Shown: positions 6,224 through 9,738 of the stretch, one piece after another
Position numbering within the stretch: the first letter of the stretch is position 1
How the letters are laid out: each line of letters begins with the position of its first letter
IMG/VR virus record: IMGVR_UViG_2713896897_000004
Coordinates: 1 to 9,910 of that record
Strand: one strand, 5' to 3'
Length of the DNA stretch: 9,910 bases
Origin: a virus
Taxonomy: Duplodnaviria > Heunggongvirae > Uroviricota > Caudoviricetes
Translations under genes and position numbers: made by a program
Notes under the pieces: model-generated
Database searches by the model: none
The model's input: only the letters and a program-made list of their open reading frames with translations
What the model was told of the DNA's origin: nothing

Positions 6224-6251
6224 CCAAAAATAAAGGCCGACTATGCGGCCT
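6224..6251 (-). terminator. Rho-independent terminator (tL1-like) after the membrane-protein gene
   Basis: Plus strand ccaaaaataaa-AGGCCG-actatg-CGGCCT: on the minus strand a 6-bp stem is followed by TTTATTTTTGG, right after the TAA at 6256. Confidence 0.55.
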
Positions 6252-6255
6252 GAAA

Positions 6256-6705
6256 TTACTTAACCAATGATGCTGCATATTCGATAAGGTAAAGCTTTGG
6301 GGCCAGCAAAATTTTTAACCATGTCATATTGGTTACTACAGCAATAATAAAGCTTACCCACAGAACAAAAACTGCAGCTAATGGTAAGATTAGAAAACTA
6401 ATCTCACCGTTACTTTCCCAAATCATAGTCGGTTTGTATTTAGTCTTCCCCTTATCCCATGACCATCCTTCATCATCGAACTTACCAATTTCAACTTTTT
6501 GGTACTGTTTCTTCATAAACCAGAAAACCAGCGGGATTGTTAAAATGGCTATTAATGTTTTAATCAGACTGTCAACCATATTCCATAGCAGCAACTGATG
6601 AACAACATCAGGAATCTGTGCCTGGCTAAATGAGACAGCTGTGTCTATTCCATTACTGGCTTTTTGCAATAGTTCTATGAGAATCTTATTTGCCTGTTCT
6701 TCCAT
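6256..6705 (-). CDS. Two-TM inner-membrane protein (149 aa), putative superinfection-exclusion protein
   Basis: ATG at 6705 with GAGGTGA 5 nt upstream, overlapping the N stop. Two hydrophobic helices (LIKTLIAILTIPLVFWFM and ISFLILPLAAVFVLWVSFIIAVV). It sits immediately downstream of N, as sieB does in lambda and P22; the assignment is by position and topology only. Confidence 0.65.
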   Translation of the reverse strand: MEEQANKILIELLQKASNGIDTAVSFSQAQIPDVVHQLLLWNMVDSLIKTLIAILTIPLVFWFMKKQYQKVEIGKFDDEGWSWDKGKTKYKPTMIWESNGEISFLILPLAAVFVLWVSFIIAVVTNMTWLKILLAPKLYLIEYAASLVK

Positions 6706-6713
6706 ATATCACC

Positions 6714-7049
6714 TCAAATAAGTGGTTTGCTGCCTAATTTCATTTTCTGGCGACCAACACAAGTCACCCCCATTTCACTGCGTGGCTTGCGGTAGTAAAT
6801 ACGGTTCTGTTTACGCTCGACTTCTTCTGCCTTCTTGCAGCGAAGGCTTCCGAGTGATATTGCTTTTTCAGAAAGGCTTAAACGCTTTCTTGGGGCCTCC
6901 TGAACAGGTTCCTCACTGTCTGTGCCGAAGATAGAATCAATGATGTTACAGATAGCATCACGCTCAATAGCAAGCTTTCTGCGCCGCTCATGACGGCGAG
7001 TTTTGGCATTTCCTGCAAATGTTGATTTTCCGTACACGATTACCGTCAT
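6714..7049 (-). CDS. N: N-type transcription antitermination protein (111 aa)
   Basis: From ATG 7049 (GAGGA 8 nt upstream), residues 13-30 read GNAKTRRHERRRKLAIER, matching the P22 N arginine-rich motif as I recall it. The C-terminus YYRKPRSEMGVTCVGRQKMKLGSKPLI parallels lambda N's WYSKPGERGITCSGRQKIKGKSIPLI. The track's 139-aa ORF begins at a GTG at 7133 in the leader. Confidence 0.85.
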   Translation of the reverse strand: MTVIVYGKSTFAGNAKTRRHERRRKLAIERDAICNIIDSIFGTDSEEPVQEAPRKRLSLSEKAISLGSLRCKKAEEVERKQNRIYYRKPRSEMGVTCVGRQKMKLGSKPLI

Positions 7050-7140
7050 GATGTTTTCCTCATGTGAAATGGCTTTGGTGGTGATGCGCCAGATGCTGAT
7101 CTTCTGGTTGCTGTCGTTGCAGCTGCAATTCACATCACCG

Positions 7141-7159
7141 CCAAACCCATCTCGTTTGG
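7141..7159 (-). promoter_or_regulatory. Hairpin in the N leader (CCAAAC-N7-GTTTGG)
   Basis: A 6-bp inverted repeat between boxB and the N start; it could structure the leader, as the RNase III site does in the lambda N leader. Confidence 0.3.
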
Positions 7160-7168
7160 TATCTGTTT

Positions 7169-7202
7169 GCGCTTTGTCAGCGCCCCATCGAAGTTAAAGA
7201 GC
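7169..7202 (-). promoter_or_regulatory. nutL site: boxA plus boxB hairpin
   Basis: On the minus strand, GCTCTTTAAC (boxA consensus CGCTCTTTA) is followed after 9 nt by GCGCTGACAAAGCGC, a 5-bp stem with GACAA pentaloop, identical to the P22 boxB as I recall it. Confidence 0.7.
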
Positions 7203-7248
7203 CTGCCAATCTGTTCCGTTTAGCTTCCAGCTTCCTGCTGACGTGACA

Positions 7249-7294
7249 ATAATGAACCAATAGTTCGATATTATCAAGAACTATTGGTACGAAA
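7249..7294 (-). promoter_or_regulatory. Putative pL promoter with overlapping operator-like inverted repeat (OL)
   Basis: Minus-strand -35 TTGATA (7277..7272) and -10 CATTAT (7254..7249) with a 17-nt spacer, about 40 nt upstream of boxA. A perfect 10-bp inverted repeat CCAATAGTTC-N11-GAACTATTGG (7257-7287) overlaps the -35. GAACTATTGGTACGAAA (7278-7294) partly resembles the OR site. Confidence 0.35.
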
Positions 7295-7457
7295 TTTTTG
7301 TGATTTATTAATGCAGCGAGATATAATTTTGATATATAAGGAAATTTATTTTTGTAAATGCTGCAGATTGGTCTGTAGTTGGAGGGGGTATTGCTGGTGA
7401 GTTGGTTCGCGGTTTACCACATTTGCGGCTATTAAATATGGGAGGGCGATCGTGAGG

Positions 7458-7487
7458 CAAAGAAAACCCGGCTCGGTGGCCGGGTTT
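7458..7487 (-). terminator. Rho-independent terminator (tImm-like) after the 348-aa gene
   Basis: Plus strand AAACCCGGC-tcggtg-GCCGGGTTT: on the minus strand a 9-bp stem is followed by TTTTCTTTG, 9 nt after the stop at 7496. Confidence 0.7.
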
Positions 7488-7495
7488 GGAGTGCA

Positions 7496-8542
7496 TCACT
7501 CTGGTTCGCTGGGGAATATATTTATCAATTGCCCTGTTGAAATGTGTCCATTTTCTACAACCTCTAGGTATGAAATTTCAACAGTTGATTCTTTGGCTAC
7601 AGCATTCAAAAACTCAAGAAGCTCATCAGTAGATGTTATGTCGGCTGAGGTTTTTATGGTGAAAGATTCACCATTTGAAACCCTTGTGACGTCAATATTT
7701 ATGTCCTGATTTGTTTCTCCCGAGCGACGAACGCCCGTGACATAAAAGTTATCTCTTCTAGTTTCCTTTTTTCGATCAATTGATTGCCTTTGGTTTAAGG
7801 TATTCAACTGTTCTCTATTTACCACTCTCTGACCAATTGTTACCTTCTCAACTGACGAGTCTTGAGCAAGCTTTTTAAGCAACTTGCTTTTACCATCCTC
7901 GCCGTGAGCCAGAACCTCTCTGCTAATGTTTGTTTGACCGCTAATCAACAACTTGAGCACATTGTCTTGTGCTTCGTTTACCGCTTTGGTGCTTTTTTCC
8001 ACCAATTGCACCTGAGAATCTTGGTCATGTCGCTGTGTTTCGTAGTACTCATTGATCCACTTATAGCCTACCGTGCTGGCAGCTAAGACGATAGCGGCGA
8101 CGGCGCATAGTGCTTGCCTTCCTGTCATTTTGCCTATCGCTTGAGTTAACACTGTCACCACTCCGTTTACAATCGGATCTGAGTCACCATCCGCTTGGCT
8201 TGAGCCTTCGCTTATTCGGTAGACAATATCCAGCAAACCTTTCTCTGCATCTTTTAGCTTCTGCCGATTATGAGTGCTGTGACTGACTACCGTAAATGCT
8301 TTTTGTATTTCATGCGTAAGCTCTGCCATACCAAAAAGCATTGACGCAGTCAATGAAGAATTATATCTATTTGGATCGCCTTTTACATTAATATTGATCT
8401 TTGGCCATCCACTGAAAACTACGCTAGGGAATGTGAAGTCGCTTGAGTCGATATCCTTCCTTCCGAGCATTTCTGTTACAAAAGATACAAAGTCGTCTTC
8501 TGACTTGATAACATATTGTGCAGGTTGATCAATCACTGACAT
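7496..8542 (-). CDS. Uncharacterised 348-aa single-pass membrane protein in the rexAB-equivalent slot; candidate prophage exclusion or abortive-infection protein
   Basis: ATG at 8542 with AAGGA 7 nt upstream, 76 nt after the cI stop with no terminator between. One central hydrophobic helix (ALCAVAAIVLAASTVGYKWI) flanked by soluble domains of about 140 and 185 aa. Hand-counted GC is about 35-40% against about 48-50% in cI and recT. No motif I can assign. Confidence 0.8.
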   Translation of the reverse strand: MSVIDQPAQYVIKSEDDFVSFVTEMLGRKDIDSSDFTFPSVVFSGWPKININVKGDPNRYNSSLTASMLFGMAELTHEIQKAFTVVSHSTHNRQKLKDAEKGLLDIVYRISEGSSQADGDSDPIVNGVVTVLTQAIGKMTGRQALCAVAAIVLAASTVGYKWINEYYETQRHDQDSQVQLVEKSTKAVNEAQDNVLKLLISGQTNISREVLAHGEDGKSKLLKKLAQDSSVEKVTIGQRVVNREQLNTLNQRQSIDRKKETRRDNFYVTGVRRSGETNQDINIDVTRVSNGESFTIKTSADITSTDELLEFLNAVAKESTVEISYLEVVENGHISTGQLINIFPSEPE

Positions 8543-8618
8543 TCTTAATCCTTAACATCCATTCCTATCACCCAAACGTCTCTTTAGGCCACTGACTATC
8601 AGCTATGTGACGATGAAG

Positions 8619-9326
8619 TCACGAATTTTTCAGCCACTCCCTTGCCTCGATGTCATCCAGATGGCGAGATTGCTTCAGAATACCAGCCACATACTCCACC
8701 TTTGCTACTTGATGATAAGGCAACGTTATAGGTCTGTGGTCCTGGTTAATGCTTGTAAATTGGTATTCTCCATCTCTGTCATAGCCAAGAACCTTAATCA
8801 TGTTGTGTCCTTCAACGGTTCTGACAAACACCTCATCACCCGGGAATACTTTGGTGTTAGGCTCAATGAGTACATATTCTCCTGATTTTATTCTGGGCCA
8901 CATGCTGTCTCCTTTCACACGAAGACCAAAGGCATCTGGATCATCGCTATAAATTTTGAGCCACCCATCGCGCTCTTCGGTCATCTCGATGGCACCATCA
9001 ACACCAAGAATTGCCTCACCAACCACGCGCACTAACCCTTTTTTTAATTTGCCAACAAATGAAAGAGTATCTTCATCATTCGCTCCATTTAACGAAGTGC
9101 CGTGCTGAAGCCAAACAACATCAACGTTTAGAAATTTCGCAAGCGCATTCATTTTTTCCTGACGCGGTAAAGACTCAGCATTAAACCATTTGCTAACGCC
9201 TTTGGACGAAAGAGAAAGGGCACGGGCTATAGCCATCCCCCTACCATGTTCATCAAGACCAGCTTCTTTACAGGCTTGCGCTAGCCGCTGGGCGAATTCT
9301 TTGCGCACTTTTTCATTCTGAACCAT
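8619..9326 (-). CDS. cI: CI-type prophage repressor (HTH plus S24 LexA-like peptidase domain), 235 aa
   Basis: N-terminal HTH (RGMAIARALSLSSKGVSKWFN) and C-terminal S24 motifs (GDSMWP serine, MIKVL lysine). Divergent from cro across an operator region; the ATG at 9326 abuts an operator palindrome. Confidence 0.9.
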   Translation of the reverse strand: MVQNEKVRKEFAQRLAQACKEAGLDEHGRGMAIARALSLSSKGVSKWFNAESLPRQEKMNALAKFLNVDVVWLQHGTSLNGANDEDTLSFVGKLKKGLVRVVGEAILGVDGAIEMTEERDGWLKIYSDDPDAFGLRVKGDSMWPRIKSGEYVLIEPNTKVFPGDEVFVRTVEGHNMIKVLGYDRDGEYQFTSINQDHRPITLPYHQVAKVEYVAGILKQSRHLDDIEAREWLKNS

Positions 9327-9404
9327 GAGTACGATACTAAAGCACTTGCAAAAACTTTCAGTTCAACCATAATACGTACTGAAAGTACGAAAAAGGATAT
9401 TCCT
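9327..9404. promoter_or_regulatory. OR region: divergent PRM/PR with three palindromic operator-like sites
   Basis: Sites AGTACGATACT (9328-9338), AACTTTCAGTT (9353-9363) and CGTACTGAAAGTACG (9375-9389). Candidate PR is -35 TTGCAA (9346-9351) and -10 CATAAT (9368-9373) with a 16-nt spacer; the cro SD AAGGA is at 9393-9397. Confidence 0.65.
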
Positions 9405-9632
9405 ATGCAAAATCTTGATGAGCCGATTAAAGGTGTCGGCATCCCTGAAGTTGCGAAGGCTTGTGGAGTTAGCGAAAGGGCTGTCTATAAGTGGCTCAAA
9501 AACGGCTTCCTCCCTAAGACTGAGTTTTTTGGGAAAACTAAATACGCATCAAAAATCGAAGAGATTTCTGGTGGCAAATATCAAGCAAGCGAAATGCTTG
9601 AAATAAGCAAAAAGAACCTTCTGGCTGCATAA
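9405..9632 (+). CDS. cro: Cro-type repressor (75 aa)
   Basis: Small HTH protein (GIPEVAKACGVSERAVYKWLKNG) divergent from cI, with SD AAGGA 7 nt upstream. Confidence 0.85.
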   Translation: MQNLDEPIKGVGIPEVAKACGVSERAVYKWLKNGFLPKTEFFGKTKYASKIEEISGGKYQASEMLEISKKNLLAA

Positions 9633-9639
9633 GTAACAC

Positions 9640-9674
9640 CGCTCTTTATCAATCTGCACCGCCGACAACGCGGT
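9640..9674 (+). promoter_or_regulatory. nutR-like site: boxA plus boxB-like hairpin
   Basis: CGCTCTTTA (9640-9648) is followed after 9 nt by ACCGC-CGACAAC-GCGGT (9658-9674), a 5-bp stem whose loop contains GACAA, between cro and cII. Confidence 0.55.
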
Positions 9675-9738
9675 AACTAATTAAGCTCTCATCGAAAGAT
9701 GGGGATTAGTGATTATTTACCTATGGAAATAGTAAGAA

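Follow-up and report, generated by a model that had tools for sequence, protein, structure and literature searches.

The question raised by this locus is whether an N antiterminator gene and a nutL site that recall phage P22, lying beside a repressor of another kind, form a uniform module or a mosaic. The locus was analysed within a stretch of 9,910 nucleotides (hereafter, the window), which comprises the immunity region and the early-left genes of an E. coli lambdoid phage or prophage and is highly mosaic: each of its segments has relatives of 90-99% identity among Escherichia and Salmonella lambdoid phages, and none of the phage records and complete E. coli genomes searched covers 80% of it. 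The reading favoured here, to which a probability of about 0.9 is assigned, is that the locus represents the control module lying next to pL in a lambdoid E. coli prophage, with an N protein that joins a P22-type head to a tail of the phage 21/lambda type. The module may come from a cryptic prophage that no longer uses it.

Organization of the region and the head of N

The features of the window to which the following analysis refers are these:

9640-9674, plus strand: nutR, P22-type by direct reading (boxA CGCUCUUUA at 9640-9648, boxB ACCGCCGACAACGCGGU at 9658-9674)
9405-9632, plus strand: cro, 933W/phi24B type, with nutR and then a cII-like gene downstream
within 9320-9392: OR3, OR2 and OR1, phi24B operator sequences read exactly in the window
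9326-8619, minus strand: cI repressor, 933W/phi24B type, with HTH_3 and Peptidase_S24 domains
8542-7496, minus strand: 348-aa ORF between cI and pL
7452-7499, minus side of the gene order: inverted repeat resembling the lambda tIMM terminator, between the 348-aa ORF and OL2
7253-7291: OL1 (TGAACCAATAGTTCG, 7253-7267) and OL2 (AGAACTATTGGTACG, 7277-7291), 933W/phi24B type, overlapping pL
7249-7277, minus strand: pL promoter from a consensus scan (-35 TTGATA at 7277-7272, -10 CATTAT at 7254-7249, 17-nt spacer)
7203-7169, minus strand: nutL, from boxA to boxB
7194-7203, minus strand: nutL boxA GGCUCUUUAA (in P22, CGCUCUUUAA), by direct reading and comparison with P22 nutL
7169-7183, minus strand: nutL boxB GCGCUGACAAAGCGC, a 5-bp stem with a GACAA pentaloop, by exact match and fold
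between nutL and N, minus strand: leader of 120 nt
7066-7153, minus strand: predicted long hairpin of the N leader, after boxB and before the ribosome-binding site of N
7047-7064, minus strand: small predicted hairpin covering the Shine-Dalgarno sequence (SD) and the ATG
6714-7049, minus strand: N antiterminator gene, 111 aa plus stop, from translation, Pfam, phrog and alignments
6960-7013, minus strand: arginine-rich motif (ARM) GNAKTRRHERRRKLAIER, codons 13-30, the putative boxB-binding helix
6822-6880, minus strand: putative recombination joint inside N, codons about 57-76 (...SLSEKAISLGSLRCKK), from sliding identity and BLAST segments
6717-6821, minus strand: C-terminal tail of N VERKQNRIYYRKPRSEMGVTCVGRQKMKLGSKPLI, codons 77-111, phage 21/lambda type, putative RNA polymerase-binding region
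6705-6256, minus strand: 149-aa ORF, next after N
6251-6234, minus strand: terminator-like hairpin just past the 149-aa ORF
beyond the 149-aa ORF, minus strand: cIII, kil, recT and others

N is the first gene of the pL operon and adjoins the immunity region, in the order pL/OL (7249-7291), nutL and N (7049-6714); the gene for P22 gp24 is likewise the first of its pL operon. The translation begins MTVIVYGKSTFAGNAKTRRHERRRKLAIERDA, from an ATG at 7049 with GAGGA 9 nt upstream, and this start corresponds to M1 of P22 gp24. A longer ORF of 139 aa starting at a GTG (6714-7133), produced by a mechanical listing, is regarded as an overcall, the homologues all starting at the equivalent of ATG 7049; its extra upstream part overlaps the leader hairpin, which also counts against a longer N. 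The 348-aa ORF, equal in length to the stk gene of 933W, was considered as its homologue and rejected, having neither a sequence match to it nor a kinase domain. An Rfam scan of the whole window (E <= 1) matched no family at threshold.

The Pfam family N_peptide (PF25694) recognizes residues 1-76 of the protein with 92.9 bits (cut-off 27.9), the alignment reaching only positions 1-76 of the 100 in the profile; its stop at residue 76 suggests that the P22-type family ends where the tail of N begins. The phrog_271 profile (anti-termination protein N-like) extends over residues 1-110 (E 2.3e-46), and no NCBIfam model matched N. The head shares 45 of 59 residues with P22 gp24 and, as the preliminary description had proposed, its ARM is that of P22 N residues 13-30, being identical to gp24 G13-R30. 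The N peptide of PDB entry 1A4T, NAKTRRHERRRKLAIERDT, differs from the protein encoded here in its last residue only (A32 here); this entry is the structure of a P22 N peptide with a 15-mer boxB RNA (PMC11480772). In its profile match, its ARM, its nut sites and its gene position, the protein belongs to the lambdoid N family, and Nus-dependent processive antitermination would be expected of it.

The nut sites and the immunity cassette

Judging by homology to P22, in which the pL +1 is annotated, the transcript of pL would start at about 7242. P22 homology opens at 7241 of the window (L001 1276), one base past the annotated 5' nucleotide of the P22 early-left RNA, and includes boxA, the spacer and the ends of the leader. 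The boxA of nutL (GGCTCTTTAA) spans 7203-7194, and a feature end placed at 7202 cuts off its first base. This base is a G, in place of the C of the consensus and of P22; since all the E. coli relatives examined carry the G variant, it is probably tolerated. The boxB sequence, GCGCTGACAAAGCGC, has one exact occurrence in the window, against a chance expectation of about 2e-5 for an exact 15-mer in 2 x 9.9 kb, and is the same 15-mer as P22 nutL boxB (L001 1330-1344) and the RNA of 1A4T, in agreement with the identity first ascribed to it. The folding that had been suggested as a check returned the GACAA pentaloop hairpin on a 5-bp stem: the isolated hairpin has a free energy of -8.5 kcal/mol, accounts for 95% of the ensemble and has a z of -3.35, whereas a 66-nt fold around boxB gives z = 0, the isolated hairpin being the relevant test.

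Downstream of nutL, the leader is strongly structured in prediction (7035-7241, minus strand; -69.3 kcal/mol, z -4.41), and 0 of 200 shuffled sequences fold as well. The base of the hairpin stem is conserved in P22 and in relatives; a covariation analysis of the hairpin over six relatives found not a single compensatory pair, and the leader of P22 cannot be aligned in its inner part. The predicted leader hairpin resembles the structured N leader of lambda.

A cognate nut site lies past each of the two early promoters, nutL (7169-7203, minus strand) past pL and nutR (9640-9674, plus strand) past pR. The core of the nutR boxB, CCGCCGACAACGCGG, is identical to the annotated P22 nutR core; in its predicted fold a 5-bp stem carries a CGACAAC loop, a C-C mismatch closing what becomes a 7-nt loop, and the same occurs in P22 nutR. 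With GACAA-loop boxB elements as in P22 nutL and nutR, and the ARM of P22, the set belongs to the P22-type nut specificity class.

The segment between the two nut sites has another origin. The cI protein is 99.6% identical to that of phi24B, whose record carries the annotation "immunity region; similar to bacteriophage 933W", the DNA from 8570 to 9632 is 99.2% identical to phi24B, and OL1 and OL2, which form a perfect 11-nt inverted repeat (I3), are exact matches to features annotated in phi24B (EF517298). Compared with P22, cI shows 25% identity to C2 over 156 residues, the match of Cro is confined to a 15-residue HTH stretch, and no P22 DNA homology was found between 7241 and 9624. The repressor, cro and operators had been described as clearly not of the P22 c2 type; this can now be made more specific, since cI, cro, OR1-3 and OL1-2 are of the 933W/phi24B immunity type and not of the P22 immC type. 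In 933W itself the same immunity type is paired with an H-19B-type N.

P22 homology thus runs from 7241 to 6924 and is resumed from 9624 to 9676, that is, from the end of cro through nutR, and its edges place the boundaries of the immunity cassette at about 7242 and about 9620, with P22-type nut sites on both flanks. Where a single mosaic junction at the immunity region had been supposed, three are found, namely inside N (at codons 60-76; 6822-6880), at the start of the pL transcript (about 7241-7242) and at the end of cro (about 9620-9624). The foreign immunity cassette is thus flanked by the members of a matched N/nutL/nutR set. A P22-head N occurs together with this nutL/nutR pair in Stx2_EH1965, in Stx1_JNE110649, in the prophages of E. 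coli D1 and STEC346 and in 1H12, and these carriers span at least three different immunity cassettes. This is the expected outcome if N has to agree in specificity with both nut sites, whereas cI, cro and the operators can be exchanged.

The tail of N and the joint within the gene

The C-terminal 35 residues of N (77-111) tell a different story from the head. They share 33/35 positions with phage 21 N and 34/35 with CUS-3 N, and the DNA from 6697 to 6869 is 96.5% identical to the genes of these two phages; to lambda N the identity is 20/35, including the pattern ERK..R..Y.KP..E.G.TC.GRQK.K..S.PLI. The lambda-like C-terminus that had been noticed at the outset is therefore real, and the tail is, more precisely, of the phage 21/CUS-3 type. 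No credible match was found between it and the tails of P22 and 1H12: P22 gp24 ends in ...GSVLLPGVALYAAGHRKSKQITAR, its C-terminal 35 residues are unrelated to those of the window N, and a global alignment to P22 (end ...LYAAGHRKSKQITAR) yields a scattered 11/35 over 31 aligned positions. With 45/59 identical residues in the head and an unrelated tail, N is not a full-length orthologue of P22 gp24. The alignment to P22 gene 24 and lambda N that had been suggested as a check accordingly gives a protein that is uniform with neither, P22-like in the head and lambda/21-like in the tail, with ARM and boxB unchanged from P22.

The heads give the reverse picture. Phage 21 N and CUS-3 N have only 16 and 12 of the 59 head residues in common with the window N, so that their ARM and boxB specificity differ, and a sliding comparison of the phage 21 boxB region with the window gives about 33% identity. 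Lambda N (chain N of 6GOV) has the same layout of ARM, NusA-binding middle and RNA polymerase-binding tail, and aligns over residues 14-111 (E 7.6e-7) with the highest confidence in the tail; its head is identical at 12/59 positions, and its ARM and boxB loop differ from those of the window, the lambda loops being GAAGA and GAAAA and that of the window GACAA. In P22-type N proteins, the segment that binds NusA is not known to have been defined by experiment. Lazinski, Grzadzielska and Das (1989) reportedly constructed N hybrids in the laboratory, in which the amino-terminal ARM set the nut specificity.

The change from one type to the other falls in a linker, KAISLGSLRCKK, which contains the crossover codons and is identical at 15/17 positions to 1H12, 14/17 to phage 21 and 8/17 to P22; the codons of the joint (...SEKAISLGSLRCKK) are a stretch common to both parental types. 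In sliding DNA comparisons, the identity to 1H12 is 86-100% from 7300 to about 6821 and then 23-40% in the remaining full bins. The identity to phage 21/CUS-3 ranges over 16-93% at positions higher than about 6880, with 16-60% in the head of N (7090-6881), and climbs to 93-100% from about 6880-6850 down to about 6697-6701. Taken together, the module is probably a three-way mosaic of a P22-type specificity set, a phage 21-type N tail and a 933W-type immunity cassette.

Several known systems share part of this architecture. Stx2a-converting phages (e.g., LC616032) and the E. coli D1 and STEC346 prophages possess the same N architecture, with 92-100% identity, and share nutL and nutR with the window; the 933W-type cI and cro of the window are present as well in Stx2_EH1965 and the D1 prophage, whereas STEC346 and Stx1_JNE110649 combine the N/nutL/nutR set with other immunity cassettes. 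The Stx2a phages, D1 and STEC346 differ from the window in the genes that separate cI from pL and in those that follow N. A published mosaic N is the gp24 of phage L / ST64T: in its first 75 residues the L protein has 96% identity to P22 gp24, its C-terminus is unrelated, the boxB sites of the two phages are identical, and each protein can reportedly replace the other (PMC8022706). The L tail (...KNRIYYRDVNPLGNKIHAVQKQRGKSIPAYYD) belongs to a different and more distant lambda-like subtype than the tail of the window. The closest comparison is offered by 1H12, which has 98% identity in cI, the same nutL and nutR, and 57/59 head and 15/17 linker residues in common with the window, but an N tail (...VCLPNVAIYAAGYRKSKQLTAR) of the P22/933W type. 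By these sequence comparisons, 1H12 is a natural tail-swap sibling of the window.

The assignment of the nut set to P22 has to be weighed against a possible 933W origin. Since the nutL of 933W contains the same 15-mer, GCGCTGACAAAGCGC, boxB was rejected as a P22-specific marker, and because it is not diagnostic alone, the P22 assignment rests on the ARM, on boxA with the flanks and spacer, and on nutR. The notion that the nut sites are functionally those of a 933W/H-19B-type N system would also find room in the GACAA loop of 933W nutR, in the likeness of the 933W ARM (GNSRSRRRERLKAKALA) to that of P22 and in the 933W-type immunity of the window. Yet the window N has the exact P22 ARM and only 12/59 head residues in common with 933W N, the nutL of 933W lacks the P22-like boxA and spacer, the nutR of the window has the P22 sequence and not that of 933W, and homology to 933W ends at 7230, upstream of the nut site. 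The sequence already contradicts a 933W/H-19B-type nut system, which is regarded as extremely improbable. Only slightly more credit, and still very little, is given to the idea that recombination has left a decaying prophage with a hybrid N that does not function, as might be imagined from the lack of any record matching at least 80% of the window and from the frequent PGAP label "hypothetical protein". The reading frame of N is intact and has a good SD, a matched nutL and nutR are kept, the tail sequence is nearly invariant over diverged heads, and hybrids of 92-96% identity occur in dozens of complete Stx-converting phage genomes and in 64 complete E. coli genomes, all of which speaks against decay.

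A more serious objection, possible although judged unlikely, is that the protein looks hybrid through reference bias: the combination of a P22 head with a lambda/21-like tail may be common and possibly ancestral, the P22/933W tail being the derived one, and no recent recombination would be needed. Lambda-like tails of several subtypes are indeed carried by P22-head N proteins, with an overall identity of 60-70%, in Escherichia, Salmonella, Cronobacter and Yokenella, and in the Salmonella protein P0057 the tail matches lambda N at all aligned positions but one. Moreover, a remnant of a 21-type tail, out of frame but 100% identical along about 57 nt, lies right after the N stop of 933W, which suggests that a P22/933W-type tail displaced a 21-type tail there. 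However, the DNA identity to phage 21/CUS-3 is about 16-53% over most of the N head and 93-100% near 6880-6850, and a rise so sharp points to a recent exchange of tail segments between lineages, in either direction; the sibling 1H12, with everything else in common but another tail, likewise argues for such an exchange. A tail exchange producing the P22-head, 21/lambda-tail protein thus remains the preferred explanation, with the qualification that, among P22-head N proteins, a lambda-like tail may be the more frequent or the older state, the P22/933W tail then being the newcomer.

A further idea, which is offered as speculation and is more doubtful than the reference-bias reading, is that the linker KAISLGSLRCKK may be a conserved joint at which two polymerase-engaging tails are routinely swapped behind the same boxB-reading head. 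The two would be the lambda/21-type and the P22/H-19B/933W-type tails, which this idea takes to be mechanistically different; the fossil of the 21-type tail behind the 933W N stop and the existence of 1H12 as a sibling with the other tail would fit it. Were the choice of tail adaptive, e.g., through dependence on host Nus factors or RNA polymerase, or through escape from Nun-like exclusion, the window and 1H12 would form a near-isogenic pair for studying the action of the uncharacterised P22/H-19B tail.

Proposed function, distribution and significance

The analysis documents the sequence identities, the fold of the hairpin, the positions of the breakpoints and how widely the arrangement is distributed; RNA binding, Nus recruitment, polymerase engagement and antitermination would be expected by analogy with the P22 and lambda systems. 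Once the 933W-type cI is off OL1 and OL2, transcription from pL would start at the predicted position and proceed leftward across nutL, where the nascent boxA, GGCUCUUUAA, would recruit NusB and NusE. The ARM helix (residues 13-30) would bind the GACAA boxB hairpin as in 1A4T, the middle of N would tether NusA, and the C-terminal 35 residues of phage 21/lambda type would contact RNA polymerase in the same way as the tail of lambda N in its antitermination complex, presumably in the hybrid cavity and RNA exit channel (PMC8632103). Hairpin-dependent pausing and termination would then be suppressed, as described for lambda N (PMC8632103), so that transcription would continue past terminators to cIII, kil, recT and further early-left genes; the hairpin at 6251-6234 (minus strand) is a candidate for the first terminator overridden. 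The P22-type nutR beyond cro would be served by the same N.

The arrangement is already known, being an ordinary, widespread and sequenced example of lambdoid mosaicism. Hybrid N proteins of 92-96% identity, with at least 80% of the protein covered, are present in 88 phage records, mainly of Stx2a- and Stx1a-converting phages, and the gene is found over at least 80% of its DNA in 64 of 5,426 complete E. coli genomes, with a 100% identical copy in STEC346; the same search gave roughly 1,600 E. coli N loci. In Salmonella, Cronobacter and Yokenella, too, P22 heads are found with lambda-like tails of several subtypes. Among the clusters of the hybrid N in the protein collection, one has 283 member sequences; some of the clusters bear the name "transcriptional antitermination N peptide", and many are called "hypothetical protein". 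The same holds for PGAP, in which many such genes are called "hypothetical protein" or are lengthened to 139-141 aa from an upstream GTG. For annotation, such genes can safely be named N antiterminators with the boxB specificity of P22.

The role of the lambda N tail has been described, and the divergent C-termini of other N proteins have been flagged as unexplored (PMC8632103); the window and 1H12, as a tail-swap pair, could serve structural work on them. A speculative side possibility, given that the nutL boxB of 933W is identical to that of the window, is that the P22-type N of a co-resident prophage could cross-activate the early transcription of Stx phages. As for the lambdoid family, the locus is a clean illustration that the RNA-specificity head and the polymerase-engaging tail of N recombine independently, and that the N/nutL/nutR specificity set moves independently of the cI/cro/operator cassette that it brackets.

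The N/nut set beside a different repressor

In E. coli STEC346 (NZ_CP091044; 5600-7340 of L013, the STEC346 comparison locus), the N gene is 100% identical to that of the window, and nutL and nutR are also the same. The repressor is a different one, a 231-aa protein of the LexA family, and cro differs too. Since an identical N/nut set stands beside another repressor and another cro, it is therefore a set that moves independently of the immunity cassette.

The start of N and its leader

Several database entries for this N protein begin at an upstream start and are about 28-30 residues longer (P0001, P0008, P0010 and P0021 (141 aa)); the counterpart of this start in the window is a GTG at 7133 (ORF 6714-7133). 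The product name given to the N gene by PGAP is often "hypothetical protein". The longer entries and these names look like a systematic mis-annotation of the start codon and of the product name.

The boxA of nutL in the window (7194-7203, minus strand) reads GGCTCTTTAA, whose first base is G, as it is in all the E. coli relatives examined (6/6), whereas P22 and phage L have CGCTCTTTAA in their nutL; the boxA of nutR, in contrast to the G-variant of nutL, is retained as CGCTCTTTA. Two hairpins are predicted in the leader:

7066-7153, minus strand: long hairpin in the N leader
7047-7064, minus strand: small hairpin spanning the SD and ATG of N

The predicted fold of the leader (7035-7241) has an energy of -69.3 kcal/mol (z -4.41). 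The base of the stem of the predicted leader hairpin is kept in P22 and in the relatives; no compensatory changes were seen when these sequences were compared.

Genes and signals on either side of N

The following features are located downstream of N and in the last part of the cI operon:

6256-6705, minus strand: 149-aa ORF, starting 9 nt past the N stop
6234-6251, minus strand: GC-rich hairpin and T-run, directly after the 149-aa ORF
7496-8542, minus strand: 348-aa ORF, between cI and the tIMM-like terminator
within 7444-7499: inverted repeat where the cI operon ends, minus-strand sequence AACCCGGC...GCCGGGTT and then TTCTTT

The product of the 149-aa ORF contains apparent hydrophobic segments and matches phrog_3054, a family of unknown function, with no match in Pfam, NCBIfam or PADLOC; a hypothetical gene of CUS-3 shares 91% DNA identity with the part encoding its N-terminus. 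The hairpin and T-run that follow are a candidate for the first early-left terminator.

The 348-aa ORF occupies the same position as rexAB in lambda and stk in 933W, both of which are expressed in the lysogen. Its product, with a hydrophobic stretch at the centre, has no match in Pfam or PADLOC and belongs to phrog_6191 by similarity, again a family of unknown function. Among 50,697 phage records, phi458 is the sole carrier of the ORF (98.6%), apart from proteins of PhiR12 phages that are annotated as "T2SS GspM containing" (about 25% identity) and a short partial match in mEp332 (34% identity over 19% of the query). The ORF is a candidate gene for exclusion or defence by the prophage.

The lambda DNA just 3' of rexB is 93% identical to positions 7444-7486, and the same segment is common to 933W, phi24B, 1H12 and Stx phages; the adjoining genes differ. 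The inverted repeat was not among the calls of a simple terminator scan of the window; its behaviour is that of a boundary or terminator sequence that has been conserved.

N tails of 1H12 and 933W

Phage 1H12 (NC_049947) resembles the window in its 933W-type cI (231/235), in having the same nutL and nutR and in the head of N (57/59), but differs from it in the N tail, which is of the P22/933W type; the two are natural siblings with swapped tails.

An apparent trace of the other tail is found in 933W:

NC_000924 record 9007-9064 (1008-1065 of L012, the 933W comparison locus): 21-type tail relic, after the 933W N stop

Immediately past this stop, 933W is 100% identical to the last ~57 nt of the phage 21-type tail of the window, a segment that encodes VTCVGRQKMKLGSKPLI and the stop in the window and is out of frame in 933W. 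The relic looks like a fossil of a 21-type tail that was displaced there by a P22/H-19B-type tail. The tail of the 933W N protein is of the P22 type, and its arginine-rich motif (GNSRSRRRERLKAKALA) resembles that of P22. The boxB 15-mer of the 933W nutL (GCGCTGACAAAGCGC, L012 1615-1629) is identical to that of the window, and the loop of its nutR is GACAA too. It seems possible that P22-type and 933W-type N/nut systems cross-recognise each other in polylysogens.
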